Shown here in pieces: positions 1-19,194 of a stretch of 19,194 nt of DNA. Below the pieces are notes generated by a model. That model was given only the letters and a program-made list of their open reading frames with translations, searched no databases and was not told the origin of the DNA. Source of the DNA: a bacterium. GTDB taxonomy: Bacteria; Arandabacterota; Arandabacteria; Arandabacterales; JALGWA01. The stretch is taken from assembly GCA_050125095.1 (NCBI GenBank), contig JASFEA010000054.1:1-19194 (forward strand), in the 5' to 3' direction. Position numbers and translations under genes: made by a program. Every line of letters begins with the position of its first letter. The stretch's first letter is position 1.

Positions 1-1
1 G

Positions 2-1252: not shown

Positions 1253-1286
1253 TGGGCATCGCTCGCGGATGAGGCGGGCACTCAAG

Positions 1287-1700
1287 TTATTCCACGATTC
1301 CCTCGTAGGTAATCGTCACCTTGTCTCTCAGCATCACGCCCACCGAGCAGTACTTGTCCACCGACAGCTTCATGGCCTTTTCAAGCTGCTCTTTGGTTAG
1401 ACCGTCGCCCGAGGCGGTGAAAGTCATCTTGATATCCTCGAAATAGGAAGGTTCCTTCTCGCGGCGCCTGGCGTCCACCTTTATGTCGAGTTTCGTAAGA
1501 TCAACTCTCATTTTCTTAAGGATCAGTACTATGTCCATACCCGAGCAACTCGCCAGCGCCATGGCAACCGTTTCCATGGGCGTTACATGGTCGCCCGAGC
1601 CGCCGTACTTGATCCCCGTATCAAATACCATGCCGGCCCCCGATTCGCTCTCGGCAGTGAACTTCATCTCCCCTGCCCACGCCAGTTTTACTTCCACCAT
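1287..1700 (-). CDS. OsmC/YhfA-family protein
   Basis: 137 aa; TPMETVAMALASCSGMD and KYCSV two-cysteine motifs; purine-rich RBS (GAGAGGGGG) upstream of ATG. Confidence 0.92.
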   Translation of the reverse strand: MVEVKLAWAGEMKFTAESESGAGMVFDTGIKYGGSGDHVTPMETVAMALASCSGMDIVLILKKMRVDLTKLDIKVDARRREKEPSYFEDIKMTFTASGDGLTKEQLEKAMKLSVDKYCSVGVMLRDKVTITYEGIVE

Positions 1701-1736
1701 TGACCCCCTCTCACTCCGATTGAACCGGTCATGTAC

Positions 1737-3221
1737 TCATCTCGAATCGGTCAGAATCTCAACCGGGTTGTTCCCGCGTCTCAACAGGTAATCCACCCAT
1801 CTCAAATTCACTTTTCTCATCACCTCCAGCATGTCCATGCGCGCCTGGAAGTGAGCTATCTCGGATTCCATCAGGTCGCTTTCCGACAGCAGCCCCTCTT
1901 CGAACTGGGCTTTTCTTTTGACAAGTCTGCGCTCGATAAGATTCACTTTCTGCGCATAAAGATCGAGCGTCGCCCGGAGCGCCAGTATCTCACGGGAAAG
2001 CTGGCCCATCATCCGCCGGGATACGACCACGGTGTTGTCGTAGCCGGCCTCGGCGGCCTTGAGATCGGCTCTTAAGAGGTCGATGTCATGGGCCCTTCCG
2101 GCCTCATAAAGCGGCACATCGAGTCTCAGGGAGCCGCCCCATCTGTTGTGGTCGAAGTTCCGGCCCGCCTCGGAGGCGTCGTCGCCTACCCCCTGCAATC
2201 CATACCACAGGGACACAGTCGGCAGTACATAACGCCACGCGGATTTCTCCTTGAGAGCGACGCGCGCTATCTCGACCTCGCATCGGACCTTGACCACTTC
2301 CGGGTTCTCCGCAACGGACGCGAGAGACGTGTCCACCACGGACGCGGCGCTGAGGTCTTCCGGGTAGACCGCTTCGGGATCGAAACCCTTGAGCCTCATT
2401 CGCTCCCTTGAAGCCGCGAGGGCCCCGGCGGCGTCTATCAGCGCGATTTCGGCGGCCCGGGCCTCTATCTTTGTGTCTATGAGTTCCTCTTCCGATATGA
2501 TGCCGTCTGCATAACTCCCCTCAGCCGCCAATGCGTCCGAACTCGCGAGCGCGTGCTCCCTACGGGCTATCTCATGCCTCAAGCGGCTCGTCATGAAGTC
2601 GAAGGCAAGGTCGATGGCGCTCCGCGCCGACTGCGCAGAGTCCATCAGGAACTGCACTTCCGCCTGGAGAAGTCTCAGCCGGGCCCTATCCCCCTCCCCA
2701 CCGCGCCGCCAGAGCTCCCTGAGGGGCTGGTCCAGCACAACCCCGACGTCGGTGAGGAACTGCTGGTCGCCGGTTTCGCGTGGAATAGTGACACCCGCTG
2801 GAAAACCGACATGCGCGAATTCCGACTCGTCGATGGAAGTCCTGCCGCTCAAGGTCAGGGTGCCGCCGGTCGGTAGGGGTTGCCTGAGGGATAGCGAGAA
2901 ATCGTAAGACTTCCATTTGTTCTCATACCAGCCCCGGTAGAGGACGCTGTCGAATTCAGCGTAGGCCACGTTCCTTACCCAGGACCTCCGCGGGGTGGTG
3001 ACGTCGAGGCTGAGGGTCGGGTACGGCAGCACTCCCCAGACTTCGCGGGTAAGGTCGCGCGCCGCCCTCAGCCTTATCTGAGCCGCCTCATAGGTCTCAT
3101 CGCCGCCCGTGTAAGCGGAGATGAAGTCATTGAGAGACCCGGCCCGGCACGTGCCGCATGACGCGGCCGCAATACATAGAGCCGGCACCAGGAGCAGGCA
3201 GATGTACTCCGAACTCTTCAT
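1737..3221 (-). CDS. TolC-family outer-membrane efflux protein
   Basis: 494 aa; N-terminal signal peptide; two repeats of the OEP pattern (PTLSL...LSLRQPL; PTVSL...LRLDVPLY) with helical segments ending SYADGIISEEEL and QFEEGLLSESDL; lies downstream of MFP and permease genes. Confidence 0.82.
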   Translation of the reverse strand: MKSSEYICLLLVPALCIAAASCGTCRAGSLNDFISAYTGGDETYEAAQIRLRAARDLTREVWGVLPYPTLSLDVTTPRRSWVRNVAYAEFDSVLYRGWYENKWKSYDFSLSLRQPLPTGGTLTLSGRTSIDESEFAHVGFPAGVTIPRETGDQQFLTDVGVVLDQPLRELWRRGGEGDRARLRLLQAEVQFLMDSAQSARSAIDLAFDFMTSRLRHEIARREHALASSDALAAEGSYADGIISEEELIDTKIEARAAEIALIDAAGALAASRERMRLKGFDPEAVYPEDLSAASVVDTSLASVAENPEVVKVRCEVEIARVALKEKSAWRYVLPTVSLWYGLQGVGDDASEAGRNFDHNRWGGSLRLDVPLYEAGRAHDIDLLRADLKAAEAGYDNTVVVSRRMMGQLSREILALRATLDLYAQKVNLIERRLVKRKAQFEEGLLSESDLMESEIAHFQARMDMLEVMRKVNLRWVDYLLRRGNNPVEILTDSR

Positions 3222-3233
3222 ACTCCCCTTGCC

Positions 3234-4469
3234 TCATTCATACCTGAGCGCCTCCACGGGGTCCAGGTGCGCGGCGCGGCGGGCCGGGTAATAGCCGGAC
3301 ACGATGCCCACGATACTCGCGACGCCGACCGATATGATCACATGCCAGACGTTTATGCCCGTCCTCCAACCGGCGAAATTCCCGACCGCAAACGACAGGC
3401 CCACTCCCAGCCCGATCCCCAGGACACAGCCCACGAGGCATATGGAAACCGCCTCTGTCAGGAACTGCAGCATAACTTCCCGGGAGGTCGCCCCGGCCGC
3501 TCTTCTTATGCCTATCTCATGCCTGCGCTCCAGCACGCTCGCCAGCATGATGTTCATTATGCCGATCCCGCCCACCAGCAGGCTGATGCCCGCAATGGTC
3601 GCCATTACTATATTGAATGTGCGCTGCGTCCGCCGGCTCTGCGCGAGAAGCGCCTGCGGCACGACGATCTTGTAGTCGCTCTCTCCGCTGTGCAGCCTCT
3701 CGAGCGCCCTCTCGATAACGCGCGCTGCGGCTTCGACGCGCCCGGCGGCCGGTATGGCGAGCACGATCTCATCCAGGCTCTCCTGGGGCCGCATCCCCCT
3801 GCTCGAGGGCGGGTCGAAGTAGGAAGCCACGCTGAGCGGCACGAATACCTCGACATTGTATTTTGGTATGCGGAGGCCCGTGACCCGTGACCTGCCGACT
3901 TTCTTGTACTCCGAGACGCCTATGACTGTAAACCAGGCGTCGCCGATCTTCACCTCTCTGCCGATGGGGTCCTCAAACGCGGCGAGCGCCTTCTTGAGCG
4001 ACGCGCCCAGCACGCACACCTTGGCCCGCGTTCCGTAATCGTGCCGGTCGAAATAGCGTCCGCCGTCCAGTCCCAGGTTCACTATGCCGGCGAACTCGGG
4101 TGTCGTCGCCACGACTTCCACCGAGTATTTCCTCGTACCCATCTGTATGACGGTGTTGGGAAACCTTCTTATGGCCGCCCACCGGCCGGCGCCCGATGCG
4201 GAAGCGAGCGACGGGCCGTCCCCCATAAGCAGGCCGTCCGTTACCCCTGCCGACCAGTCGGCCCATGAGTTCTCCACGAAGACCGTGTTTGCCCCCATCA
4301 GGCTGACCTGCTCGAGCATCTCGCGCTTGGCGCCTTCGCTAATGGAGAGCATGGCGATGACGGCGGCGACGCCGAACATCACGCCCAGGGCCGTAAGAAA
4401 TGCGCGCACTTTGTTGGATAGCATGGAGCGCAGCGAAACCGCGATGCTCTCGAGACGGTAGGGCGCCAA
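3234..4469 (-). CDS. ABC transporter permease, MacB family (no nucleotide-binding domain)
   Basis: NKVRAFLTALGVMFGVAAVIAM, GISLLVGGIGIMNIMLASVLERRHEIGIRRAAGA, YPARRAAHLDPVEALRYE; TTG start with GGGGAG RBS. Confidence 0.95.
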   Translation of the reverse strand: MAPYRLESIAVSLRSMLSNKVRAFLTALGVMFGVAAVIAMLSISEGAKREMLEQVSLMGANTVFVENSWADWSAGVTDGLLMGDGPSLASASGAGRWAAIRRFPNTVIQMGTRKYSVEVVATTPEFAGIVNLGLDGGRYFDRHDYGTRAKVCVLGASLKKALAAFEDPIGREVKIGDAWFTVIGVSEYKKVGRSRVTGLRIPKYNVEVFVPLSVASYFDPPSSRGMRPQESLDEIVLAIPAAGRVEAAARVIERALERLHSGESDYKIVVPQALLAQSRRTQRTFNIVMATIAGISLLVGGIGIMNIMLASVLERRHEIGIRRAAGATSREVMLQFLTEAVSICLVGCVLGIGLGVGLSFAVGNFAGWRTGINVWHVIISVGVASIVGIVSGYYPARRAAHLDPVEALRYE

Positions 4470-4471
4470 CT

Positions 4472-5644
4472 CTACTCCCCGCTTTCGGTGGGGTCCTCTA
4501 GCGCGACTTCATCGCCCTCACCCAGGCCCGATCGGATGATGATATGCGAGTCGTTCCTCGGGCCCACCTCGACCTCTCGCGGCCGGAAACCCCTTCCGCT
4601 CTTCACGTAGACGAGCGTGGCGCCTTCCTTCTCGAAAACGGATTCGATGGGCACGAATATCTCGTCGGGATAGACGTCGACTATGATCTCGACCCTGGCG
4701 ATCATGCCCGGCCGGAACCGCTCGTCCTTCTCGTCGAGCTCCACCGATATGTCGAACACATTGGGGCCCCGGCTCTGGTATTTGCTTCGGGCGAGATTCC
4801 CGACGGTGCCGATATGCCCGCCGAAGGAGGTATCCGGATAAGCCTCCAGGGTTATGCGGCAGAACTGGTCGACCCCCACCCTGCTGATATCGGTCTCGTC
4901 AATATCCGACGCCACGTACTGGGTCGAAAGGTCGGGCAGCGCCATTATTGGCTGTCCGGGCCAGGGCGAGTCTCCCTCCTGCACCTTGACCTGCTGGCCC
5001 CCGCGCCAGACCTTCTCATGGATCACGATGCCGTCGCCGGGTGCGGTAACGGTGAGCTTGGCGATATTCTTCTCGGCCGTCGTCACCCGCTCCTCGGCCC
5101 TGGCTATATTGACTTCTTCCTTGAGGGCCTCGGCTTCCATTACCTTGAGCTCGGTCTCGCGCCGGGCCACCGCCAGGTCGGCGTCTCGCTCGGCTTTCTC
5201 CAGGTCGGCCGCCGAACCGCCCTCGGCCTTTCTCAAGGCCAGTTGGCCCTCGGCGACACCCGCATCGAGTTCCTTTTTTCTCAGCTCATTCTTGGCCAGC
5301 ATTAGGTCGAGGTCGGCCCTGGCAGCCGTGAGCTCGCGCCTGGCGCTTTCCAGGCGTTCGGTAAACTCCATGTCGTCGAATTGCGCCAGGAAGTCGCCCT
5401 TCGCGACGTAGGTCCCCTCGGGAACGAGCCTTGTTATGAGGAGTTTGCTGCCGACGCTGGGGGCGGTTACGGTAAGCGACCTGCGGGCGGTGAGCACGCC
5501 GCTCCTCACGATCTTGATCGTGAACTCGCCGCGCTCCGCCGGCGTGGAGACCGTGCCGGCGTTCCGCGCCAGTGTCAGTATGAGTATGACGCCGACCACC
5601 ACTATGGCGCCGACAATGACACCTGTTTTAGTCCAGCGCGTCAA
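4472..5644 (-). CDS. Efflux membrane fusion protein (MacA/HlyD-like periplasmic adaptor)
   Basis: N-terminal TM anchor, lipoyl-like half motifs (VPEGTYVAKGD; VTAPGDGIV), long coiled hairpin, FRPGMIARV, and C-terminal SGLGEGDEV. TTG start. Confidence 0.92.
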   Translation of the reverse strand: MTRWTKTGVIVGAIVVVGVILILTLARNAGTVSTPAERGEFTIKIVRSGVLTARRSLTVTAPSVGSKLLITRLVPEGTYVAKGDFLAQFDDMEFTERLESARRELTAARADLDLMLAKNELRKKELDAGVAEGQLALRKAEGGSAADLEKAERDADLAVARRETELKVMEAEALKEEVNIARAEERVTTAEKNIAKLTVTAPGDGIVIHEKVWRGGQQVKVQEGDSPWPGQPIMALPDLSTQYVASDIDETDISRVGVDQFCRITLEAYPDTSFGGHIGTVGNLARSKYQSRGPNVFDISVELDEKDERFRPGMIARVEIIVDVYPDEIFVPIESVFEKEGATLVYVKSGRGFRPREVEVGPRNDSHIIIRSGLGEGDEVALEDPTESGE

Positions 5645-5691
5645 GACACTAACACCGGCCCCTTGCAGTCACAGTGGATGTGCAGACCCGA

Positions 5692-6114
5692 CTACTGCGT
5701 ACGCTTTATTATGTGATATCCGAACTTGGTCTCCACAACATCCGAGACCCCGCCCGGCTCGAGCGCAAACGTGGCGTCCTCGAAAGGCTTGACCATCCTC
5801 CCCTTCTTGAAAAAGCCCAGGTCCCCGCCCTTCTCCGCGGTGGGGCAGTCCGAATAGGCCCTGGCCAGCTCCCCGAAGTCCTCACCGGCCTTCGCTTTCT
5901 TGTCGATGTCCTGCGCCAGTTCGGACGCCTCCTGTTTACTCCTCGTGGACGTCGCCCTTTCGGCGCCTTCATATGATATGAGTATGTGGCTGGCCCTCAC
6001 GCTTCCCGGGGGCGCGGGCTGCACCGTCTTGGGAGCCTCTGCCTCCTGCTTCTCGCCGCCGCAGGCGAGCGAAAGTATCAGAACCGCCAGCAATACCATG
6101 AGAATTCTGTTCAT
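5692..6114 (-). CDS. Parvulin-type peptidyl-prolyl cis-trans isomerase, predicted lipoprotein
   Basis: VRASHILI, FGELARAYSDCPTAEKGGDLGFF, MVKPFEDATFAL and ETKFGYHII parvulin motifs; lipobox LSLAC; GGAGG RBS. Confidence 0.95.
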   Translation of the reverse strand: MNRILMVLLAVLILSLACGGEKQEAEAPKTVQPAPPGSVRASHILISYEGAERATSTRSKQEASELAQDIDKKAKAGEDFGELARAYSDCPTAEKGGDLGFFKKGRMVKPFEDATFALEPGGVSDVVETKFGYHIIKRTQ

Positions 6115-6149
6115 GTTATCCTCCCTCTCCGTGGCTGGGAATCAACTGC

Positions 6150-6178
6150 TTGATGGTTAATCGGTAGCAGGGTAACAT
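6150..6178 (+). promoter_or_regulatory. Candidate sigma70 promoter for the queG-like gene
   Basis: TTGATG (6150-6155), 17-bp spacer, TAACAT (6173-6178). Confidence 0.4.
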
Positions 6179-6197
6179 AGACGCGATTGGCGGTCAA
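6169..6197 (-). promoter_or_regulatory. Candidate sigma70 promoter for the PPIase-efflux operon
   Basis: Minus strand TTGACC (6197-6192), 17-bp spacer, TACCCT (6174-6169) preceded by a TGn extended -10. Confidence 0.45.
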
Positions 6198-6200
6198 TAG

Positions 6201-7334
6201 ATGGACGCAGCGAAACAACAGGAAGCGAAGAGAAGAATCCGGGAGCTCGCCCGGGCCGAGGGCATAGGTGCCGTGGGTTTCACCGACGCCGCGCCGCTCG
6301 AAGAGACGAGGCGCCACCTGGCGGAAGCTATCGCGGCCGGCTATATCCCGGCGGGGTCGATCCCGTCGGAAAAGACGCTTGAGAGAATCGTCGATCCCGG
6401 CCGCAGGCTGAAGACAGCCAGGACCGTCGTGACAGCCTGCCTGAGCTATAACACGGGCGAGACTCCGCCCGGCGACGCCGGCATGGGCATCATCGCGCCC
6501 TATACCCGGGCCAACTTCTACGGCGAAATCAAGTCCAGGCTCGCTAACGTCGCCTCCGCCATGGGAGAGGAGTTCGGGGCGACGAGCAAGGTTTCCTCCA
6601 ACTACGTCTCGCTCGCGGAAAAGCCGCTTGCCGCGAGATCCGGTCTCGGCTTCTACGGCAAGAACGGGATAATCATAAATCCCGGCTACGGCTCCTTTAT
6701 CGTGCTGGGCGAAATCGTCACCGACCTTGAAATCGAGCCGGACCCGCCTCTCGACATGGACTGCGGCGAGTGCACCGCCTGTATCAGGGCCTGCCCTACC
6801 GGCGCGATTGAAAAACCGGGCTGGGTGAATCGCAAGAAATGCATACAGTATATCAGCGAGAGGCGGGGCTCCATTCCCCATCAAATCCGGGACGTGTGGG
6901 GCAACAGGCTCTACGGCTGCTCGACCTGCCAGGACGTCTGCCCGTTCAACAGGGACATCCCGGCGGCGGCCCCCGAAGCGCCGTCGGCACACGTGGGAGG
7001 CGCCGTCCCGCTGGCGGAGGTCATCGGCATGGGCGAGGCCGACTTCACGCGCAAATTCGAAGGTAACCAGATCGGTATGAGGGACGCAAACGCGATCAGG
7101 AGAAACGCCATTGTGGCCGCCGGTAATTCCGGCGCCCGGGCGCTCGCCGGGCCCCTGACAGCCTGCCTGAATGATCTCGATCCCATGATAAGGGGGCATG
7201 CGGCGTGGGCGCTAGCGGCGCTTACGGGCGGGGACGCAAGGCCGGCTCTCGAGTCGTTGCTTAAGAGCGAATGGGAGCCCGAAGCGCGCAAGGAAACCCA
7301 GACAGCGCTTGACGCAACGGCACGGTTCTTTTAA
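6201..7334 (+). CDS. queG: Epoxyqueuosine reductase QueG-like protein (two 4Fe-4S clusters, C-terminal HEAT-like repeats)
   Basis: CGECTACIRACPTGA, KKCIQY and RLYGCSTCQDVCP Fe-S motifs; GLGFYGKN and GSFIVLGEIVTD; RRNAIVAAGN and IRGHAAWAL HEAT-like tail. Catalytic motifs diverge (see findings), so orthology is uncertain. Confidence 0.8.
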   Translation: MDAAKQQEAKRRIRELARAEGIGAVGFTDAAPLEETRRHLAEAIAAGYIPAGSIPSEKTLERIVDPGRRLKTARTVVTACLSYNTGETPPGDAGMGIIAPYTRANFYGEIKSRLANVASAMGEEFGATSKVSSNYVSLAEKPLAARSGLGFYGKNGIIINPGYGSFIVLGEIVTDLEIEPDPPLDMDCGECTACIRACPTGAIEKPGWVNRKKCIQYISERRGSIPHQIRDVWGNRLYGCSTCQDVCPFNRDIPAAAPEAPSAHVGGAVPLAEVIGMGEADFTRKFEGNQIGMRDANAIRRNAIVAAGNSGARALAGPLTACLNDLDPMIRGHAAWALAALTGGDARPALESLLKSEWEPEARKETQTALDATARFF

Positions 7335-7368
7335 CATGAATTGAAAGGACCGAGGTCGCGGATCGTCA

Positions 7369-7821
7369 ATGAACTTATCTAAATTAGTCCTTCCCAAGAA
7401 AATAAACCTCAACCTCGAGGCGACAACCAAAGAGGCCGTCATTGAGGAATTGGTCGAGATGCTGCGGCTCAGCGGACCCGCGAGCAAGACGCTGGTCGCG
7501 ACACTCCTCACCCGCGAATACCTCGGCTCCACCGGGGTCGGCAACGGCATCGCCATACCCCACTGCCGTTCGCTTGTAGTGAGCCGAGTTCGCGTCGCCA
7601 TAGGAAGATCAAGAAAAGGAATACCATATAAGTCGATAGACAAAAAGCGAGCGAAGATATTCTTTCTCATAGTCGCGCCTCCGGTCGGCGACCCGAGCGA
7701 TTACCTGATAGTGCTGGGCCAGGTCGCGCAGGTTGCCAAGAAGCTGGCCAAGGACAAGCGACTTCCGAAAATCAAGACAGGCCAGGAGCTCATAGACTTA
7801 ATAAAGGAATTCGAGAAATGA
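7369..7821 (+). CDS. PTS IIA domain protein (Ntr/fructose-mannitol type, PtsN-like)
   Basis: REYLGSTGVGNGIAIPHCR carries the phosphorylatable His motif; GIPYKSIDKKRAKIFFLIVAP; stand-alone, with no IIB/IIC gene nearby. Confidence 0.92.
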   Translation: MNLSKLVLPKKINLNLEATTKEAVIEELVEMLRLSGPASKTLVATLLTREYLGSTGVGNGIAIPHCRSLVVSRVRVAIGRSRKGIPYKSIDKKRAKIFFLIVAPPVGDPSDYLIVLGQVAQVAKKLAKDKRLPKIKTGQELIDLIKEFEK

Positions 7822-8186
7822 ATTCTCAACTTCAGGTCCTGATCGCGCTTCAGGACATACTCCTTCTCATCAGGGACGCGAAGGACCCGACGCGCAAGAA
7901 GAAGTACGGCCGGATCGGTTTCAAGATATCCAATTTGAAGTCGTTGGAGGATACGCAGGCCAAACTCGAGGAACAGCTCGACCCCGCCATCAGGAGCCAA
8001 TACGTACGCATGAAGCAGAGATACGGAAGGGTGGTGGCCCCCGTTATCAATGCTGTGTGCCACGGCTGCTTCGTCACCATCCCCTCTGCCATAAGAGGGG
8101 CCGAAGACCGGAACAAGAAGCTTTACCGCTGTGAGAACTGCGGCATGTTTCTCTACTGGGTCGAGGAGCAGCCCATTCTGCGGTAA
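7818..8186 (+). CDS. Short C4-type zinc-ribbon protein (CT398/zf-RING_7-like)
   Basis: MNSQLQVLIALQDI N-terminus; YVRMKQRYGRVVAPV; CHGCFVTIP...YRCENCGMFLY; ATGA overlap with the PTS IIA gene. Confidence 0.85.
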   Translation: MNSQLQVLIALQDILLLIRDAKDPTRKKKYGRIGFKISNLKSLEDTQAKLEEQLDPAIRSQYVRMKQRYGRVVAPVINAVCHGCFVTIPSAIRGAEDRNKKLYRCENCGMFLYWVEEQPILR

Positions 8187-8233
8187 TTGGCTTTAACAAA
8201 CCGGATTACACCGATTTTCCGCCCCTTTTTCCT

Positions 8234-8262
8234 TTGACAATGCTTGTATAAAATTGTAATAT
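8234..8262 (+). promoter_or_regulatory. Sigma70-type promoter of the ParA-CBM gene
   Basis: Perfect TTGACA (8234-8239), 17-bp spacer, TAATAT (8257-8262) in an AT-rich intergenic region; AGGAGG RBS at 8315-8320. Confidence 0.7.
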
Positions 8263-8329
8263 CTCTCAAAATTGCGTGTTTTCTGGAATATCTCAATTCG
8301 GGGCGAAGAACAATAGGAGGTTGTTCTAA

Positions 8330-9400
8330 ATGAGAAGGATTGCTGTAGTCAATCAGAAGGGCGGCTGCGGAAAGACGACAACGGCCGTGAGCCTGGCTCT
8401 CTGCCTTCAGGATATGAGCAACAGGGTTTTGCTTGTTGACATGGACCCCCAGGGGAGCAGCACCCAGTCACTGCATCCGGAAACGGACTCGCTTGAACAC
8501 ACGGTGTACGATCTCTTGATGGACTCCAACCAGCTGCCGGTGTCGAACGTCACGGTTAAGGCCGCCAGGAACCTCGACCTCCTCCCCGCCAGTGTCGTCC
8601 TCAGCACCGTCGAACAGAGACTCGCCGGCCGCGACGGCAGGGAACAGAAACTGAGGAGGGTAATCGACCGCGTATCTGGAGAATACGACTTCGTAATAAT
8701 CGACTCGCCTCCCAATATCGGCCTCCTGACTTTCAACGCGCTGCTGGCGGCCAAGGAGATCATCATCCCCGTGGACCCGTCCCTATTCTCGCTGCAGGGA
8801 GTGGGCCGCGTTATCGACGCGCTGGAGATTGTCCGCAACGTCAGCGGCCACACCGCCGACTTCCGCGTGCTGGCGACCATGTACGATTCGAGGACGAGAA
8901 TCAGCCGCGAGATCCTCTCGACCCTGAAGCGGCGGTTCGGGGACTCGTGTTTCCGCACCGTGATAAGAAGCAACGTCACCCTCAAGGAAGCGACGGGCTT
9001 CGGAGTGCCCATAACGCATTACCGCGGCTCGCGCGGATTCTATGATTACCGATCGGTGGCCAATGAGCTCCTGGGAAATGAACCGACCCAGAAGGACATC
9101 GAGGTGCAGGCGACGATAGACTTCCTGGCCCCACGGCGTATCGGAGGAGGCGTGCTCTTCTCCTACCTCGGCAGCGAGGCCGACGTCATCGCGGTGGAGG
9201 GAAGTTTCAATTCCTGGGACGCGTCGTCGGACATTCTCCTGGACGTGGACGGCCGCGGCCTGTGGCAGAGAGTCATTCCGCTGAGGCCCGGATCCTACAC
9301 CTATCGTCTCGTAGTCGACGGCAATCCGATCGTGGATCCCAACAATCCCGAGACACAACACGTTGAGGACAAGGGCCAGGTGTCGGTAATCAATCTCTGA
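8330..9400 (+). CDS. ParA/Soj-family ATPase fused to a C-terminal AMPK-beta/CBM48-like glycogen-binding domain
   Basis: Deviant Walker A NQKGGCGKTT, DMDPQGS, YDFVIIDSPP and TVIRSNVTLKEA; from about residue 275, VLFSY..ADVIAVEGSFNSW..GLWQRVIPLRPGSYTYRLVVDG..DPNNP matches the AMPK-beta-type CBM pattern. Confidence 0.9.
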   Translation: MRRIAVVNQKGGCGKTTTAVSLALCLQDMSNRVLLVDMDPQGSSTQSLHPETDSLEHTVYDLLMDSNQLPVSNVTVKAARNLDLLPASVVLSTVEQRLAGRDGREQKLRRVIDRVSGEYDFVIIDSPPNIGLLTFNALLAAKEIIIPVDPSLFSLQGVGRVIDALEIVRNVSGHTADFRVLATMYDSRTRISREILSTLKRRFGDSCFRTVIRSNVTLKEATGFGVPITHYRGSRGFYDYRSVANELLGNEPTQKDIEVQATIDFLAPRRIGGGVLFSYLGSEADVIAVEGSFNSWDASSDILLDVDGRGLWQRVIPLRPGSYTYRLVVDGNPIVDPNNPETQHVEDKGQVSVINL

Positions 9401-9443
9401 ACAGAGGGAGCCGCGTCAGGGGAACCGGCCCGCTGGAATCGGC

Positions 9444-10790
9444 TCAGTGGAGCTTGTAAATGCTCCCCCCTATGAATTCCCTGAGAAGAGAGTCATCGGG
9501 AATCACCGATTCGTCTTCGAATACCTCTATCTCGGAGAGAAGCCTGTAGATGCGTTCGGCCCTGATGAAGGCGTCCCGGCGCTTCCGCTCACCCCTCCAC
9601 TGGTCCATGACCTTGGGGAAGTATTCAAACTCATACTTCTTAAGTACGGGCAGCTCGTAGGGAAGCGCGCCGTTCAGTATGTAGTCCGCGTTCCTGATAA
9701 AAGGGATGATATGTTTCAGTTCGCTTCGCCTAACATAATGCCAGTGGCCCACGGTCTGCATGGGATCGTAGGCGCGCTGCGAGTGGTCCCGCACCATGCG
9801 CCTTAAGAGCCTCACGTCCGTCCATCTCACGAAGTTCCTCTCGCTGTCTCTGAGCATGGAGATGGTCTCGATGTAGACCTTGAACTTGAGGTCGTCATCC
9901 ACACTCGCCGTCAGGGGCGGGTGGAGGCCGTGGAGGGTGTCTATGAGGATTACCTTATCGGGATGGAACTTGACCTTACGGGTCTCTTTCGACCTCGTCC
10001 CGGTCTTGAAGTCGTACTGGGGCATATCCACCGTTTTCCCGTCGACCAGGTCGGCGAGGTGGTCGTTTATGAGCTGAAGGTCTAGGGCCTCAGGGGTCTC
10101 GAAGTCATAGTCCCCGTACTCGTCTTTAGGATGCAGCTCCAGGTTGAAGAAGTAGTGGTCCAGGTTAAGCGGTTCGGTGTCGATTCCGAGCTCCCTGAGG
10201 CGGGCCGCGAGTTTGGCCGTGGTGGTGGTCTTCCCTGACGATGACGGCCCGGCGACGATGATTATGCGGATCTGGGCCTTGAATCGGGCCACGGATTCGG
10301 CTGCCATCGCAATACTCTCCGTGTACCTCGCGTCCGAGTCACGTATGAGCTCCGGATAGGTTCCGTCCTTCACCCTCCTGTTGAGCTTCTCGGTGGTCTC
10401 GCAGTCATGGTCGATGTTCCAAAGGAACTGCTCGTACATAAGCTGGAAGGGAAGGGGCCTCTGGTGCCTCTTCGTCGCCCCCTTGCGTTCGCGCTCACGC
10501 CTGCGGGACTCGCGGTACAGTATATAGGCCTTCGCGGTCTTGGCGTGGCCGTTCTCTATCAGGACCTTCTCCACAATATCCTGGACTTCCTCAACTGTGG
10601 GCACATCCGGCGGCTCGAATGAGTGGCTGATGATTTCCACGGCTTCGTCGGAGAGCTTTTCGCTGAGCGCGCGGTCATGGCCTCCTACGGCCGCAGCTGC
10701 TTTGTAGATGGCTATCGTGACCTTCTCCTGGTCGAAGTCGACTATCGTCCCGTCGCGCTTCATCACCTTTTCGATTCTGTGTTCGACCAA
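9444..10790 (-). CDS. ATP-cone domain fused to a uridine kinase/PRK-family P-loop kinase
   Basis: N-terminal VMKRDGTIVDFDQEKV...TVEEVQDIVEKVLIENGHAKTAKAYILYR is an ATP-cone; AGPSSSGKTTT Walker A, LDHYF, DFETPEALD, PQYDFKTGTR and RLLRRMVRD match the uridine-kinase-like family. Start moved to TTG 10790, which has a GAGGTG RBS and avoids overlap with the upstream gene. Confidence 0.87.
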   Translation of the reverse strand: MVEHRIEKVMKRDGTIVDFDQEKVTIAIYKAAAAVGGHDRALSEKLSDEAVEIISHSFEPPDVPTVEEVQDIVEKVLIENGHAKTAKAYILYRESRRRERERKGATKRHQRPLPFQLMYEQFLWNIDHDCETTEKLNRRVKDGTYPELIRDSDARYTESIAMAAESVARFKAQIRIIIVAGPSSSGKTTTTAKLAARLRELGIDTEPLNLDHYFFNLELHPKDEYGDYDFETPEALDLQLINDHLADLVDGKTVDMPQYDFKTGTRSKETRKVKFHPDKVILIDTLHGLHPPLTASVDDDLKFKVYIETISMLRDSERNFVRWTDVRLLRRMVRDHSQRAYDPMQTVGHWHYVRRSELKHIIPFIRNADYILNGALPYELPVLKKYEFEYFPKVMDQWRGERKRRDAFIRAERIYRLLSEIEVFEDESVIPDDSLLREFIGGSIYKLH

Positions 10791-10812
10791 CTGAATCACC
10801 TCATGTATCGGC

Positions 10813-12285
10813 TCAGGGGACGTAGGGCGTGCCCTCTTCAATCCTCGCTTCTATGAACTCCGCGTAATGCGCGTTCAGGTCACCTGATTCTATAATGGCC
10901 GCCGTCTCGTTGTTCTCCTCTACCGCGTGATACGTCCAGTTCGTTGAACCGACGACGGCATAATCGTCGTCCACGATCATGAGCTTGGCGTGGACCGTCG
11001 TCTCCGGGGAGTCCACATAGACCCGGGCGCCGGCTTCACCCAGTCTCTCCAGGAGACGGTCCTCGCCCCGGGAAGGCGTACCGCTACCGCCGACGTCCAC
11101 CACCACCCTGACTTCCACCCCCCGCCGCGCCGCCGCCTCGAGCTTCTCGACAATCAGGTTGGTATAGCTCGCGACTTCGCCCTCTGCCCTCTCCCTTCTT
11201 GCCGTGCTCGGAGTCGACGTGTAATAGACCGCGTTGAGCATGGCCACCCATATTCTCTCCTCGGCCGACTCTATCAGGCGGTTGACTTCGCCCACGTAAT
11301 ATTCATTGGGAACGGGCAGAACCCGCTCGGCCTCATACCATGACAAATCCGGCTTCTCGCCGGTCATGGTCTTGACATAAGCCCTCTCCTCATCCAGCTT
11401 CTTCAGCATCGCCCCTGGCGTGTCGGTTCTCTCGATGTCGATTGCAGCGAGCTCGACGACGCCGTTTCGGCGGACCCTGGTCAATACCCTAAGGGTCTCA
11501 TCTGGGGCCTCTTCAAAGAATTCAGGGTACAGGGCAAGGACTCGCTCGAGATCGCTGTCCGAGACCGTAACCGTGGCGCCGTCGAATTCGATGAAGCCCA
11601 CCACGAGATCCTCGTCATAACTCACGTGCCTCGGCAGGTCTCTTATGAGCACATACCGGTCCTCGCTCTCCATCGCCTCGCGCGCGGATACCTGCTCGAC
11701 CGGGTCATGGTACTCCTCGCTGCTCTCCCTGATGACGCCCTCGAAAAACTCGCCGAACCGTTCCGCGACTTCCTTTGAGTTGATCACGACATTGGCCTCA
11801 TGGTTCTGGTCGAGCGAGTAATAACTCCAGTTGGAAGACCCGACGACGGCGTACCGCCCGTCGATTATGATGAGCTTGGAGTGGCTCGTCTTATCTGCGG
11901 GGTCGTAATAGACCTCCACGCCGCTGTCCCTGAGAACGGTCCAGACGTCCCGGTTGGCCTCGCTGTTCTCGACGTTCCAGGCGGCGAGCTCAAGCACCGC
12001 CCTCACCCTGACGCCCCGCTCGCTCGCGTCCGCCAGGTCGGCGATGAGGACATTGCTCTTGCTGTTAGGGTAGTTTATGTAGAAGCGGCTCTGGTAGAGC
12101 ACTACGTCCACGCTCTCTTCGGCATTGCTTAGGAGTTCATGCACGACGGTGAAGAAACTCCGGTCATCGGCGGCGAGCACGGCCGCACGCATGACTGGCG
12201 GCCCGGTGATCCGCAGAAACACCACTGCCGCCACCACGATAGCCGCCACTACGACGAAACCCGCTATGATACCCCTTTTGTCCAT
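10813..12285 (-). CDS. Membrane-anchored phospholipase D-superfamily protein with two Nuc-like HKD domains
   Basis: N-terminal TM/signal segment; HSKLIIIDGRYAVVGSSN and HAKLMIVDDDYAVVGSTN motifs, each followed by an NxE motif (NHEAN, NNETA); AGGAG RBS. Confidence 0.9.
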   Translation of the reverse strand: MDKRGIIAGFVVVAAIVVAAVVFLRITGPPVMRAAVLAADDRSFFTVVHELLSNAEESVDVVLYQSRFYINYPNSKSNVLIADLADASERGVRVRAVLELAAWNVENSEANRDVWTVLRDSGVEVYYDPADKTSHSKLIIIDGRYAVVGSSNWSYYSLDQNHEANVVINSKEVAERFGEFFEGVIRESSEEYHDPVEQVSAREAMESEDRYVLIRDLPRHVSYDEDLVVGFIEFDGATVTVSDSDLERVLALYPEFFEEAPDETLRVLTRVRRNGVVELAAIDIERTDTPGAMLKKLDEERAYVKTMTGEKPDLSWYEAERVLPVPNEYYVGEVNRLIESAEERIWVAMLNAVYYTSTPSTARRERAEGEVASYTNLIVEKLEAAARRGVEVRVVVDVGGSGTPSRGEDRLLERLGEAGARVYVDSPETTVHAKLMIVDDDYAVVGSTNWTYHAVEENNETAAIIESGDLNAHYAEFIEARIEEGTPYVP

Positions 12286-12310
12286 ACCCGCTTCTCCTCT
12301 TACATTGCAG

Positions 12311-12339
12311 TTGATACCCGGGTTCCAATCCTATATTAT
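12311..12339 (+). promoter_or_regulatory. Candidate sigma70 promoter of the metal ABC operon
   Basis: TTGATA (12311-12316), 17-bp spacer, TATTAT (12334-12339). Confidence 0.55.
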
Positions 12340-12380
12340 TGCCTCGGAAGCTACAAGACGTTAATCCTTCGGATAAAGAC

Positions 12381-13271
12381 ATGAAGCTGTCCATTCTGCT
12401 TATCGCGGTCTCGCTGGTCCTAGCCGCCCTCTCCATGCCGCCGGGGGCGGGGGAAGGCAACGCCGCCGAGCCGGGGCACCTCAGGATCGCGACCAGCATC
12501 TACCCCATAACAATGCTGGTTGAGGAGATCGGAGGGGACAGGGTGGACGTGACCACCGTGGTGCCGCCCGGGGCGGACCCCCACCATTTCGAGCTCACCC
12601 CGTCCAGCGCCAGAGCCATACATGAAGCCGATGCGGTCCTGATGATAGGCGGGGATTTCGACACGTGGATGATGGGAGACGGTCATCGGGCGAATAAGGT
12701 ATGCGGGACGTTTAACCAGGTCTTCGCCGACTCGCTCATCGAGCTGGGAAGCACCTTCAATCCCCATTTCTGGCTGGATCCCCTATTCGCATGCAAGATG
12801 GGCGAATACATATGCATCACCATGGTCACGATCGACCCCCGGAACGCATCATATTATGAGAAGCGCCTGGCGGAATTCCGCGCGCGCATGGACTCGCTTC
12901 ACGCCGGGATCAGGGCGAGAATCGCAGAGAGCGGGCTTGCGGGCTTTGTCTCATTCCACCCCGCCTGGACTTATTTCGCGAGGCGCTACGGCCTTCTCGA
13001 GGCGGGAGTCGTGGAGAAGTTCCCCGAATACGAACCGTCGGCCAGGTGGGTGGCGGACCTCATTCGCAGGATAGAAAGCGAACACGTCCCCATCATGATC
13101 GTGGAGGAAACCTCGGACCCGGGGATTGTCGAGGGGATCGTCAATGACACGGACATTGAAGTGGTCGTCCTGGATCCCGTCGGGGACCCGGCCGTCCCGG
13201 GTCGCGATACCTACTCCGGGCTCATGAACCACAACGTCAGCCTGTTAGAGCGAGCGGCGAGGAGGGACTGA
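12381..13271 (+). CDS. znuA: Zn/Mn ABC transporter substrate-binding protein (cluster A-I)
   Basis: Signal peptide from ATG 12381 (MKLSILLIAV); PPGADPHHFELTP, NPHFWLDP and SFHPAWTYFARRYGL His ligands; LDP motif. Metal specificity is not established. Confidence 0.88.
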   Translation: MKLSILLIAVSLVLAALSMPPGAGEGNAAEPGHLRIATSIYPITMLVEEIGGDRVDVTTVVPPGADPHHFELTPSSARAIHEADAVLMIGGDFDTWMMGDGHRANKVCGTFNQVFADSLIELGSTFNPHFWLDPLFACKMGEYICITMVTIDPRNASYYEKRLAEFRARMDSLHAGIRARIAESGLAGFVSFHPAWTYFARRYGLLEAGVVEKFPEYEPSARWVADLIRRIESEHVPIMIVEETSDPGIVEGIVNDTDIEVVVLDPVGDPAVPGRDTYSGLMNHNVSLLERAARRD

Positions 13272-13277
13272 GGCGAC

Positions 13278-14096
13278 ATGACCGATATGGTGAAGCCCGC
13301 TGAGACGGAAGATCCCATAGTCCGGGTTTCCCATGTCTGGGTGTATATGGGAGAAGCCCTGGCGCTCAAGGACGTATCTCTCGTCATAGAGAGAGGCAAG
13401 TTCATAGGCCTGATGGGGCCCAACGGCGGTGGCAAGACCACGCTCATAAAGACGATTGTCGGTCTCATAAAGCCCGACCGAGGCGAGGTCGTAGTCAGGT
13501 GCCCGGCCGGAAAGGCAATCGGTTACGTGCCGCAGGAGGAATACATCGACCCGGACTTCCCCGTAACGGCGGCCGACGTGGTTGAAATGGGGCTCTACGG
13601 TTCAATGGGAGCCTTCCCCAGAACGACAGGCGAACACCGGGCCCGCATATTCGAGGCGCTGGACATGGTGGGCATGAAGAAGCACGCCGCAAGAAGCATC
13701 GGCTCTCTCTCGGGCGGCGAGAAGCAGCGCGTATCCATTGCTCGGGCCATCGTGGGCAGACCCAGCCTGCTGCTTCTGGACGAGCCGACCACGGGCGTCG
13801 ACGCGGATGCGCGGGACGCCTTCTTCCAAATACTGCGGGACCTTCGTGGGGGCCTGGCGCTCACTATAGTGCTGGCTTCGCATGATATCGAGGTTGTGCC
13901 CGCGCAGGTCGATGAGGTGGTCTGCATCAACCAGAGGGTCTTCGTGCACGCGGCGCCTGAGGAGATAGAGGACGTCGCGGATTTCAGAAGCGCTTACGGC
14001 TGCGAGTTCGAGTTCCTTGCCCATGGCAAGATCCCCCACCGGATCATCGGGCACCACAGGGTGGACGAGGCCGGAGAAGGCGGTGACGATGCTTGA
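13278..14096 (+). CDS. znuC: Zn/Mn ABC transporter ATP-binding protein
   Basis: GPNGGGKTT, IGYVPQ, LSGGEKQR, LLLLDEPTTGVD, ASHD; C-terminal YGCEFEFLAHGKIPHRIIGHH. Confidence 0.92.
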   Translation: MTDMVKPAETEDPIVRVSHVWVYMGEALALKDVSLVIERGKFIGLMGPNGGGKTTLIKTIVGLIKPDRGEVVVRCPAGKAIGYVPQEEYIDPDFPVTAADVVEMGLYGSMGAFPRTTGEHRARIFEALDMVGMKKHAARSIGSLSGGEKQRVSIARAIVGRPSLLLLDEPTTGVDADARDAFFQILRDLRGGLALTIVLASHDIEVVPAQVDEVVCINQRVFVHAAPEEIEDVADFRSAYGCEFEFLAHGKIPHRIIGHHRVDEAGEGGDDA

Positions 14097-14916
14097 GGAC
14101 ATGCTGAGTCTCCCGTTCTTCCAGAGGGCGCTGATCGGCGGCATACTGGTCACGGTAACCCTCTCTCTTCTCTCCTTCTTCGTGGTGCTCCGCAGAATAG
14201 CCTTCATGGGAGCGGGCATTTCGCATTCCGCCCTGGCCGGCGTTGCCATAGGCCTGGTGTTCGGAATGAACACCACCCTGACTGCGACCGTGTTCTGCGC
14301 GATCATAGCTTTACTCGTGGGCTATATCTCCCGAAGGGGCCGGGTCCGCGAGGACGTGGCCATAGGAATTACGTTCTCGGGCACGATGGCGCTCGGCGTA
14401 ACGCTCATCGCCGTTTCGGGGAAGTATATGTCGAACCTCTTCTCCTATCTCTTCGGCAGCATATTGACCATCACCACCGGGGACATAGTGCTCATGGCCT
14501 TCTATTGCCTCGCCACGGTCGCGCTTATCGCGCTCTTCTTCAAGCACCTGCTGCTCATCAGCTTCAATGAGAGCATAGCGCGCGTCTCCGGGCTGCCCGT
14601 CGACTTCCTGCACTACCTGCTGCTGGTGCTTATCGCCATGGTCATCGTGGCTTCCATCAAGCTCGTCGGGATCGTGCTGGTGTCTGCGCTGCTGGTGCTG
14701 CCGGCCGCCACGGCCCGGCAGATCAAGGGCGAATACCGGCCCATATTGCTCGTCTCGATCCTCGTGGGCCTGATTTCGCTGTTTACCGGATTAGCGCTTT
14801 CCTATACATTTGACCTGCCGTCCGGCGCCACCATAGTCCTATGCGCCTGCGCGCTCTTCTTTATCTGCTTTTCGCTGTCACCCATGCGCCGGCGGAAGCC
14901 CGTAAAAGGAGGTTAG
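14089..14916 (+). CDS. znuB: Zn/Mn ABC transporter permease
   Basis: FFQRALIGG, FVVLRRIAFMGAGISHSALAG, SYLFGSIL, VGIVLVSALLVLPAATA and DLPSGATIV; start taken at ATG 14089, overlapping the end of znuC. Confidence 0.92.
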   Translation: MLEDMLSLPFFQRALIGGILVTVTLSLLSFFVVLRRIAFMGAGISHSALAGVAIGLVFGMNTTLTATVFCAIIALLVGYISRRGRVREDVAIGITFSGTMALGVTLIAVSGKYMSNLFSYLFGSILTITTGDIVLMAFYCLATVALIALFFKHLLLISFNESIARVSGLPVDFLHYLLLVLIAMVIVASIKLVGIVLVSALLVLPAATARQIKGEYRPILLVSILVGLISLFTGLALSYTFDLPSGATIVLCACALFFICFSLSPMRRRKPVKGG

Positions 14917-14917
14917 C

Positions 14918-16345
14918 ATGCTGAGGAAGCTCCTGGTAATCGCTCTTCTCTCGGCGCTCGCATGTGGAGGAGGTCAGCAGAGGCCGGCCACGCAAAGCAC
15001 CTCAATCGGTACAACACGCGTGTCCAGCGGCGACATCGCTCAGGTTGTCTTCTACGCCAGGCTGATGCACGAAATCACACCGGGAATCCGATGGGAGCTG
15101 CGAAAGGTATCGCTCGAGACGGCCGGCGGGTCCCAGGTCGACCTGGCTACGGAGACCCGCATCATCGATACCGACCATCTGGCAGGAGCGCAGAGACTCC
15201 TCAGGGCCGCGGAGGTGCCGCCGGGAGACTATACCGGCATAACCTTCTTCACGGAGGCGGCGTACGTCAAACCCGACAATACGCCCATGGTCATCGAGAC
15301 CAGCATAATAACCGTGGACCACGCCTTCTCGCTGGCCGCCGGAAGCGCCAGGACGCTGATATTCGTATTGAGCCACCCGCCCGCAGGGGGCCGGGCCGAG
15401 CCGGTTTTCAGTCCCGTAATAGAAATAGAGGACGAGAACCAGAGTCCGACGTCGAAACTCCTATATGTCTCGAACGAGAATTCCGCGAACATCTCGGTTG
15501 TGGACAAGAGCATGAAGCGCGTCGTCTATAATGCATATCTGGGGGCACGGCCCACCGCGATCGGGGCCGACAACCGCAGGGGCCGGCTCTATATAGCAGA
15601 CGAGCGCACGGGCACCGTTTTCGAAATGGACATGAACAGCAATCACCTCAGCAACGTGGCGGAGCTGGACTTCGTCGACGAACCTGTGTTTGTACTTCCC
15701 ATACCGGAGAAAGACCTCATAGTAGTCGTCAACTACGGCACCGACACCGTCCACCTGCTGGACTCATTCAGCCTTCAGCCCGTCAGTACCGTAGAGGTGG
15801 GGCGCAGACCGACCAAGGCCATTTATTCGAATGTGTGGGAGCGCGCTTTTATAATAAACAGCCTGCATGGCACGCTGTCCGTGCTCAATCTGCAGTCCAC
15901 ACCGAGCGCGCCCGACACCACGCTGCAGGCGGAGCTCAGGCCCTCAGGCCTCGCCATAAACGAGGCCGACGACTGGCTCTATGTGTCAAATGAGGGTTCA
16001 ACCGACATCACGGTCATCAGGATGGAGACCCTTGCCATAGAAAGGTCGCTTACGGTCGGGACCGGCGTGACCGACATCGCCTTCGATCCCTTCGGCAGAC
16101 GGCTGTACGTAGCGTTCGGGTTTTCGCAAGAGGTCAAGTGCATAGACCCGTATAACGGCGTGGAGATATTCACAGTGAACGTAGGGAGCAGTCCCGCGCA
16201 GCTCATGTTCGATCCGGATCAAAAGAAGCTCTACGCGCTTCTCCCCGCCGTAAACGCGATCGCCCTCATAGACCCCAACTTGAGATCGCTGGAGACCATT
16301 ATAGAGACGGGCGAGAGCCCTTCCGGCATGGCCCTGCGCCTGTAA
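14918..16345 (+). CDS. Lipoprotein with N-terminal beta-rich domain and YVTN/YncE-like beta-propeller
   Basis: Lipobox LSALAC; repeated blades (LYVSNENSANISVVD, LYIADE, VVNYGTDTVHLLD, LYVSNEGSTDITVI, VGxxP turns); AAGGAGG RBS; starts 1 bp after the znuB stop. Confidence 0.85.
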   Translation: MLRKLLVIALLSALACGGGQQRPATQSTSIGTTRVSSGDIAQVVFYARLMHEITPGIRWELRKVSLETAGGSQVDLATETRIIDTDHLAGAQRLLRAAEVPPGDYTGITFFTEAAYVKPDNTPMVIETSIITVDHAFSLAAGSARTLIFVLSHPPAGGRAEPVFSPVIEIEDENQSPTSKLLYVSNENSANISVVDKSMKRVVYNAYLGARPTAIGADNRRGRLYIADERTGTVFEMDMNSNHLSNVAELDFVDEPVFVLPIPEKDLIVVVNYGTDTVHLLDSFSLQPVSTVEVGRRPTKAIYSNVWERAFIINSLHGTLSVLNLQSTPSAPDTTLQAELRPSGLAINEADDWLYVSNEGSTDITVIRMETLAIERSLTVGTGVTDIAFDPFGRRLYVAFGFSQEVKCIDPYNGVEIFTVNVGSSPAQLMFDPDQKKLYALLPAVNAIALIDPNLRSLETIIETGESPSGMALRL

Positions 16346-16350
16346 AAGGT

Positions 16351-16402
16351 GGGGTCAGGTCTTAAATTGCACATCAACCGGGGTCAGGTCTTAAATTGCA
16401 CA
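16351..16402. repeat. Two perfect 23-bp direct repeats GGGGTCAGGTCTTAAATTGCACA (REP-like)
   Basis: Copies at 16351-16373 and 16380-16402, separated by 6 bp (TCAACC), between convergent genes. Confidence 0.9.
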
Positions 16403-16433
16403 ATCGGGCGCGGGGACACCGCCGGGTACGCTC

Positions 16434-19192: not shown

Positions 19193-19194
19193 CG

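Follow-up and report, generated by a model that had tools for sequence, protein, structure and literature searches.

The window analysed here, the 19,194 nucleotides (nt) at positions 1 to 19,194 (forward strand) of contig JASFEA010000054.1 (assembly GCA_050125095.1), from a bacterium of the order Arandabacterales, carries a gene that encodes a genuine fusion of a ParA-type ATPase to a carbohydrate-binding module (CBM) of the CBM48/AMPK-beta type. The coding sequence occupies 8330..9400 (+), from an ATG start, and specifies 356 amino acids (aa) plus a stop codon. It belongs to a clade, hereafter T1, with orthologues of 356 aa at 65-84% identity in nine further genomes of the order. Tentatively, the window protein is read as binding the nucleoid in an ATP-dependent manner and tethering glycogen particles, or something on them, as an auxiliary to a complete ParA-CBM module (T2) encoded elsewhere in the same genome. 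ParA/MinD ATPases position DNA, carboxysomes, chemoreceptor arrays and division sites; we know of no system that positions a storage polysaccharide. A ParA with a built-in glycogen-type module makes active organisation of glycogen in bacteria directly testable. What is new here is the T1 clade with its altered sugar-binding face, its presence or absence at a single chromosomal slot, and its co-occurrence with the complete T2 module.

The two-domain architecture is evident from profile searches and predicted structures. The Soj/ParA-type ATPase domain, delimited by Pfam, Foldseek and alignment, spans residues 1-250 (8330..9079, +). A flexible linker of about 20 residues follows (residues 251-272; 9080..9145, +), recognised by a dip in the predicted local distance difference test (pLDDT) score and as the least conserved segment relative to more distant homologues, and the CBM48/AMPK-beta-like beta-sandwich, supported by Pfam, the structural model and Foldseek, covers residues 273-356 (9146..9397, +). 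The protein matches AAA_31 over residues 1-170 (E 2.8e-49), CbiA (E 3.2e-19) and further ParA/MinD models, and over residues 283-343 it matches AMPK1_CBM (PF16561) with 32.9 bits, above the gathering cut-off of 26.8, so that AAA_31, CbiA and AMPK1_CBM are all found in one protein; CBM_48 (PF02922) reaches 19.1 bits, under its cut-off of 22.4. The full-length AlphaFold2 model, built on an alignment of 21 sequences, has a pLDDT of 85.8, and the sole segment below 50 is residues 260-262 in the linker; thus, two domains joined by a flexible linker are predicted. In Foldseek searches the ATPase domain matches B. subtilis Soj (9a6n; E 3.6e-25, TM-score normalised to the target (TMt) 0.91, 39% identity) and also ParA (8ray) and Thermus Soj (1wcv), with identities of 36-40%. 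A separate model of residues 261-356 (pLDDT 91.7) has the CBMs of AMPK beta2 and beta1 as its top matches (4yee_B, E 1.4e-6, TMt 0.82; for 4yef_D, TMt 0.86 and root mean square deviation 1.7). The initial annotation was therefore correct in describing a full-length Soj-like ATPase of about 250 aa, here residues 1-250 with intact motifs, joined to an AMPK-beta/CBM48-like domain, and its domain boundary of about 9149-9397 (residues 274-356) is also correct.

Residue conservation was examined in an alignment of 105 homologues (the 120 listed minus 15 outside the range of 340-375 aa), comprising 54 T1 sequences, 7 sequences of a sister clade and 44 others. The Walker A motif KGGCGKT (8357-8377, +), within NQKGGCGKTT, supplies the signature lysine K10 as well as K15, and these residues are invariant in 105/105 family sequences, as are the aspartates D39 and D125; judged by its motifs, the ATPase is catalytically intact. 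The basic residues that bind DNA in Thermus Soj (R182/R194/R208/R211) and B. subtilis Soj (R189/K201/R215/R218), as given in PMC6393308, map by alignment to R188, K200, S214 and T217 of the window protein, two of the four being basic. R188, the equivalent of B. subtilis R189, is present in all 105 sequences, the position of K200 is basic in 49 of the 54 T1 sequences, and two flanking positions are basic as well (R213 in 54/54 T1 sequences, K or R at 219 in 105/105). Nucleoid binding by the window protein is plausible on this pattern of residues.

The window protein shares with chromosomal Soj/ParA proteins of solved structure (9a6n, 8ray, 1wcv/2bek and H. pylori Soj 6iub) its fold (TMt 0.86-0.91, 32-40% identity), the deviant Walker A motif with its signature lysine, the aspartate equivalent to Thermus D44, and R188. 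It differs from them in possessing a C-terminal CBM48-type domain, in having no adjoining ParB, in the serine and threonine at two DNA-binding positions, and in being encoded away from the true parAB of the lineage. Structures of McdA (6nop, 6non) are matched by the window ATPase at 22-24% identity.

That T1 is the chromosome-segregation ParA (Soj) of the organism, bearing an accessory domain, is extremely improbable. In its favour, the closest solved structures are chromosomal Soj/ParA proteins, and neither ParB_N nor a canonical ParA was found in the assembly of the window's own genome (G000). Comparison was made over 16 genomes of the order and 18 of the phylum: 14 of the 16, including G002 of the same genus, encode a canonical ParA of about 260 aa beside ParB, in the order rsmG-parA-parB at the one locus read (G012), and the pair is missing only from G000 (91% complete) and G001 (83%), both of the window's genus. 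The absence of ParB_N from G000 is best explained by an incomplete assembly. Because canonical parAB is present in 14 of the 16 genomes, T1 is not the only ParA of the lineage, nor is it its segregation ParA; a separate canonical parAB, proposed as a check in the initial annotation, thus exists in the order, though not in the G000 and G001 assemblies. Furthermore, T1 is missing from a clean slot in three near-complete relatives, and an NCBIfam search of the window protein gave no model above its cut-off, ParA equivalogs included.

The C-terminal module has the same beta-sandwich as the AMPK beta CBMs (1z0m, 4yee, 4yef; TMt about 0.8-0.86, 21-25% identity) and keeps the tryptophan of the FN.W motif (W100) and a basic residue at the position of K126, but it has proline at the position of W133 and sits on a ParA ATPase rather than a kinase scaffold. 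In AMPK, residues W100, K126, W133, L146 and T148 contact sugar, and mutation of any one of them leads to markedly poorer binding of glycogen (PMC2642990, PMC6274970); W133A is among these mutations (PMC2642990). HMMER alignment to 2f15/4y0g identifies W296 (9215..9217, +) as the equivalent of beta1 W100, a position that is tryptophan in 105/105 sequences (54/54 in T1). The equivalent of K126, R326 in the window protein, is K or R in 104 of 105 sequences overall and in 53 of 54 in T1. By the same method P333 (9326..9328, +) falls at the position of beta1 W133, so that the second platform tryptophan is lost: this position is tryptophan in 0/54 T1 sequences, tyrosine in 7/7 of the sister clade and tryptophan in 44/44 other members, and within T1 it is never aromatic (P in 22, A in 15, S, T and E in 5 each, Q and V in 1 each). 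V351 (9380..9382, +) aligns to a position that is asparagine or aspartate in other family members (V in 50 and I in 4 of the 54 T1 sequences; N in 42 and D in 2 of the 44 elsewhere). The family asparagine here may correspond to AMPK N150, judging by an alignment made by eye. The same residue pattern recurs in an independent set of 27 sequences from genomic loci. The loop carrying AMPK L146 and T148 could not be aligned confidently to the window CBM. Thus, the carbohydrate-contact set W100/K126/W133 is incomplete in the window copy, in which W296 and R326 are present and the W133 position is proline.

In a FastTree phylogeny, T1 and the tyrosine-bearing clade (support 1.0) nest within the family, apart from T2, and the losses from the sugar-binding site are therefore derived. 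T1 also has conserved CBM motifs specific to the clade, such as LLDVDGRGLWQR. By its residues and its placement in the tree, T1 is a derived clade in which part of the sugar-binding site has been lost.

Genomes of the order differ at one syntenic slot by the clean presence or absence of a single gene, T1. It is found (at least 65% identical) in 10 of the 16 genomes of the order, and the gene order QueG-ptsN-Zn-ribbon-[T1]-kinase-PLD-ZnuA is kept in 9/9 T1 loci. In G003, G005 and G009 (93-99% complete), an empty slot of about 20-110 nt lies between the Zn-ribbon gene and the kinase gene. Across genera, T1 is 65-68% identical to the G000 copy, the kinase gene 65-70% and the Zn-ribbon gene 63-71%. 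The GC content at third codon positions (GC3) of T1 is 0.776, with most neighbours at 0.76-0.78 and ptsN at 0.67. In pairs with unsaturated synonymous divergence, the ratio of nonsynonymous to synonymous substitution (dN/dS) lies at 0.06-0.10 in the ATPase domain and at 0.05-0.21 in the CBM, and among closer homologues the identity of the CBM lies about 5-12 points under that of the ATPase domain. The encoded protein is exactly 356 aa, in an intact frame, at nine loci, and nearly all listed members of the clade are 354-357 aa long. These comparisons indicate that T1 is vertically inherited and under purifying selection, and does not behave as a fast-evolving sensor would. They also bear on whether T1 is a decaying or functionless duplicate, as might be thought from its lost sugar-site residues, its lack of a partner and the loss of the gene in several genera. 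Such decay is very unlikely in view of the intact frame and near-uniform length, the invariance of all catalytic residues, the dN/dS well under 1 in both domains, and a promoter-like site and strong ribosome-binding site belonging to the gene itself.

The second ParA-CBM of the window's genome, T2, is encoded on contig C51; it is 361 aa long, 42% identical to the window copy, matches AMPK1_CBM with 55.3 bits and keeps the canonical sugar-site residues. It begins a complete module (G000:C51:12649-15450, L141:7950-10751) that continues with a 312-aa CbiA-like protein and a 266-aa protein having no Pfam match. T2 is present in 15 of the 16 genomes of the order, in G001 as two pieces at contig ends, and nine of the ten genomes with T1 also hold T2, the exception being G014, at 73% completeness. 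Neither T1 nor T2 is present in the two genomes of the sister family. The T2 operon is conserved in the 11 loci fetched. The partner encoded 3' of T2 has an N-terminal LGRGL..SH.F.SG motif, invariant in 10/10 orthologues, that resembles the N-terminus of the lineage's own ParB, RKALGKGLDALIP; its body is degenerate ParA-like, with a P-loop lacking the signature lysine (TSG....GK[ST]). The LGRGL..SH.F motif occurs once in G000, on C51 only, and related peptides were recognised by eye at the head of the gene after ParA-CBM in 3 of 12 loci from other phyla. ParA-CBM typically takes the form of a ParABS-like module comprising a full-platform ParA-CBM, an LGRGL partner and a third protein.

A complex of two copies of the window ATPase domain with ATP and residues 1-50 of the C51 partner was predicted with a score of 0.37, the best of three controls scoring 0.00. 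Of 157 solved complexes, 116 reach the mark applied, as do 2 of 215 mismatched pairs, and passes at 0.60 or below comprise only 18 of the 157 solved complexes and both of the passing mismatches. Contact agreement among the runs was at least 68%, and the pLDDT of the partner at least 42. The prediction lends weak support to a contact between the window ATPase and the C51 partner, and the pass may reflect likeness only, because ParA-ParB-peptide complexes have already been solved.

These results modify the picture of T1 as an orphan, one-component system. In cis the gene is indeed an orphan: no cognate ParB or other partner adjoins it, and neither a second degenerate ParA with a third protein nor an upstream gene for a transmembrane (TM) CBM protein is present in the window or in any of the nine T1 loci. 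In the genome as a whole it is not, given the second ParA-CBM with its partner operon on C51. The description as one-component is doubtful, because for most members of the family the next gene encodes a partner whose N-terminal peptide is ParB-like and because the canonical site of the window copy is impaired. In the reading tentatively preferred here, the ATP-bound dimer would bind the nucleoid, probably through R188, K200, R213 and K219; the C-terminal module, its specificity altered or weakened, would hold alpha-glucan (glycogen) particles or one of their components; and T1 would serve as an auxiliary tether beside the complete module, with release by the ParB-like activator of that module in trans as a possibility. 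A more ambitious version, which we consider unlikely as a whole, is that the two ParA-CBM paralogues constitute a dedicated apparatus for tethering and partitioning glycogen particles on the nucleoid, in which the T2 module would position the particles and T1 would be a second tether with a different glucan specificity (for example, for branch structure or granule state), released by the same activator in trans. If true, bacteria would here be seen for the first time to position a storage polysaccharide actively, by a system that includes a naturally occurring variant of the binding site.

Such a protein would resemble the orphan ParA/MinD positioning systems, which we take to include McdA-McdB for carboxysomes and ParC/PpfA for chemoreceptor arrays, in being a ParA-family ATPase that does not belong to parABS and for which the nucleoid presumably serves as the matrix. 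In ParA/MinD positioning systems a separate adaptor is employed, the N-terminal region of which stimulates the ATPase (a 2024 review, PMC11407121); in the window protein, by contrast, the ATPase and the presumed cargo-binding module form one chain, and no adaptor is encoded in cis. Since the genome pairs a canonical-site copy that has a partner with a derived, partner-less copy lacking two of the sugar-site residues, ready-made controls are at hand.

Tethering or partitioning of alpha-glucan granules, the role first proposed for the window gene, draws support from the architecture of the protein and from the glycogen genes of its host: in G000, glgA, glgB and phosphorylase-like genes are present, together with a tandem pair of glgC-like genes that each score slightly below the curated cut-off. 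In 4 of 11 loci of T2, a GH57 branching enzyme is encoded four to five genes upstream, and a GalT-like gene also lies a few genes upstream; these four loci all belong to one family and are not independent, and G000 is not among them. Among ParA-CBM carriers from other phyla, 13 of 14 have a GT5 GlgA, including genomes of 1.3 Mb, and 10 of 14 have a phosphorylase.

A number of points weigh against this role. The GT5 GlgA count of 13/14 carriers compares with 12/14 control genomes and does not discriminate, so that the co-occurrence survey suggested in the initial annotation has no power. No glycogen gene lies within the window, and in 12 annotated loci of other phyla no glycogen-metabolism Pfam family was found up to five genes away (at L023 and L027 a usable central open reading frame (ORF) was lacking, and ORF calling was faulty for L026 and L028). 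The link of ParA-CBM to glycogen is suggestive at best. Because the equivalents of W133 and of the family asparagine are lost, and mutation of W133 impairs glycogen binding by AMPK, binding of alpha-glucan by the window copy is in doubt, and the variability at residue 333 within T1 suggests relaxed constraint at the canonical site. The CBM48 fold is itself not specific for alpha-glucans: the C-terminal model also matches CBM48 modules of feruloyl esterases and branching enzymes, and the feruloyl-esterase modules, of which 8bf3 was solved with xylobiose, give an equal or better TM-score normalised to the query (TMq, 0.81-0.82). Two of the four canonical DNA-binding positions, S214 and T217, are not basic. 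Finally, the empty slots show that T1 is dispensable in the order.

The main alternative is that the T1 tail no longer binds sugar and, once the canonical platform was gone, turned into a protein-interaction or regulatory domain, with which the ATPase would position or regulate a different cargo, or couple a cell-cycle or division process to another signal, in either case without involvement of glycogen. This explanation, which we rate as rather doubtful, accounts for the loss of both residues in 54/54 T1 sequences and the free variation of position 333 while the remainder of the domain is under purifying selection, for the absence of glycogen and partner genes in cis, and for the capacity of the CBM48 fold to serve other ligands. 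It does not account for the strict retention of the W100 and K126 equivalents (54/54 and 53/54), for the nesting of T1 in a family that otherwise retains the full platform, or for the occurrence of T1 almost exclusively with the complete module (9 of 10 genomes).

The ParA-CBM fusion is not singular. A protein search with the window protein gave 5797 matches among 8000 candidates, and PF16561 is present in 120/120 of the homologues listed, most of which are 354-373 aa long; they carry no more specific name than 'chromosome partitioning protein' or 'AAA family ATPase'. A search of a genome collection was dominated by ordinary ParA proteins, with 14 of the 80 loci kept extending into the CBM; these 14 are in metagenome-assembled genomes labelled Omnitrophota, Planctomycetota, Myxococcota and Vicinamibacterales. 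At four Omnitrophota loci (L025, L033, L050 and L088) a gene order recurs that differs from the order of the module in the Arandabacterales: an Alginate_exp-type porin, a protein of about 190 aa with one hydrophobic segment, ParA-CBM, a membrane protein of about 105 aa, and a lysine-rich protein. No paper linking ParA to CBM48 or to glycogen granules, and no functional study of the architecture, was found in the literature, in agreement with the initial annotation; the word glycogen is absent from the accessible text of the 2024 review of ParA/MinD positioning (PMC11407121).

The architecture is already named "ParA-CBM" in an October 2026 bioRxiv preprint (10.64898/2026.10.19.760177), which gives it a different, immune reading. 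In its accessible text, the preprint assigns ParA-CBM to a conflict-associated branch, ConB5, predicts a role in immunity from rapid divergence of the CBM and sporadic distribution, and describes two elaborations, one with an upstream TM-CBM gene and one with a second ParA and an inactive restriction endonuclease (REase). The window protein shares the fusion of ParA to a C-terminal AMPK1_CBM with these proteins, and the C51 operon reproduces the second variant in gene order (ParA-CBM, second ParA, inactive REase), with its degenerate second ParA and third protein. In contrast to the proteins of the preprint, so far as its accessible text describes them, the window copy has no upstream TM-CBM gene or downstream partner genes, lacks the second tryptophan and the conserved asparagine, and forms a clade of its own, and the evolution of T1 in the order does not fit the description "rapidly diverging, sporadic".

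As an immune sensor, T1 would detect an infection-linked carbohydrate with its lectin domain, whereupon multimerisation of ParA would block a selfish element. Besides the placement in a conflict-associated branch and the match of the C51 operon to the second variant in the accessible part of the preprint, the single-gene presence/absence polymorphism of T1 between convergent neighbours is what might be expected of such a sensor. The idea is nevertheless quite improbable for T1, since within the order the CBM is not fast-evolving, by its dN/dS of 0.05-0.21 and its modest deficit in identity relative to the ATPase domain; the divergence of T1 matches that of the housekeeping genes around it, and its GC3 is native; and T2 is in a conserved operon in 15 of the 16 genomes. 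PADLOC returns only PDC-M28B, at 21.2 bits (21-24 bits), over the P-loop. The flanks are housekeeping genes, syntenic across the order and with no defence-island context, and include no defence genes save a generic phospholipase D (PLD) protein that persists where T1 is absent. The paralogue pair is also relevant to the choice between a housekeeping family, which the evolution seen here suggests, and the immune one proposed in the preprint.

Signals for expression precede the T1 gene. A strong ribosome-binding site, GGAGG at 8316..8320 (+), is read directly from the sequence 9 nt ahead of the ATG; the initial annotation had noted such a site. The promoter also claimed for the gene is less secure: a sigma-70-like site, TTGACA-17 nt-TAATAT (8234..8262, +), with 10 of 12 matches to the consensus as its basis, is well placed in the 143-nt gap downstream of the Zn-ribbon gene, but the 2.3-kb region contains 2 such sites compared with 1.1 +/- 0.9 in shuffled sequences, so that the call is good in placement and weak in statistics.

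Upstream of T1, Pfam annotation of the window identifies a QueG-like gene, ptsN (EIIA-2) and a gene for a 122-aa Zn-ribbon protein (7818..8186, +; Zn_ribbon_9 at 26.7 bits, under the cut-off of 29.1). The last two, at 7369-8186 (+), overlap by 4 nt (ATGA), and the pair is conserved in the order with or without the ParA-CBM gene. The Zn-ribbon gene was considered as a dedicated partner of T1 and rejected, as it keeps its place next to both ptsN and the convergent kinase gene in relatives without the ParA-CBM gene (G003, G005 and G009) and is, besides, translationally coupled to ptsN. The initial statement that no parB or small partner gene lies next to the ATPase gene therefore holds for parB, but overlooks this small gene directly upstream, even if it is no dedicated partner. 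Among the annotated neighbours in the window there is no parB, glycogen or defence gene, the generic PLD protein aside.

Downstream, T1 faces convergent genes for an ATP-cone/PRK-type kinase and a double-PLD protein, beyond which lie znuABC-like genes. The first (9444-10841, -) encodes 465 aa with an ATP-cone and a PRK/uridine-kinase-type domain, conserved at 65-70% identity across the order; the pairing of an allosteric nucleotide sensor with a kinase is unusual. The second (10813-12285, -) shares 29 nt at its 3' end with the start of the kinase gene; its 490-aa product has a hydrophobic N-terminus and contains two PLD domains. Many DrmC (DISARM) models match this protein in PADLOC (best E 2.3e-31), a generic match, and no further DISARM genes were found nearby.

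Elsewhere in the G000 genome, other proteins also carry CBM48-type domains. One of 745 aa (G000:C176:1797-4034, L148) has the odd architecture of a bactofilin domain, an AMPK1_CBM/CBM48 domain and an Omp85/DUF5686-like C-terminus. At G000:C107:6485-9886 (L147), a 767-aa CBM48 protein is followed by a predicted lipoprotein of 361 aa with three tandem AMPK1_CBM/CBM48 domains, and contig C86 encodes a secreted GH13 amylase bearing a CBM; the CBM48 proteins of C107 and the amylase of C86 suggest that the organism also handles external alpha-glucans. At the far end of the window (16434-19186, -), an amidohydrolase ORF (16434-18098) overlaps a molybdopterin-binding ORF (17786-19186) by 313 nt, and one of the two starts is probably mis-assigned.

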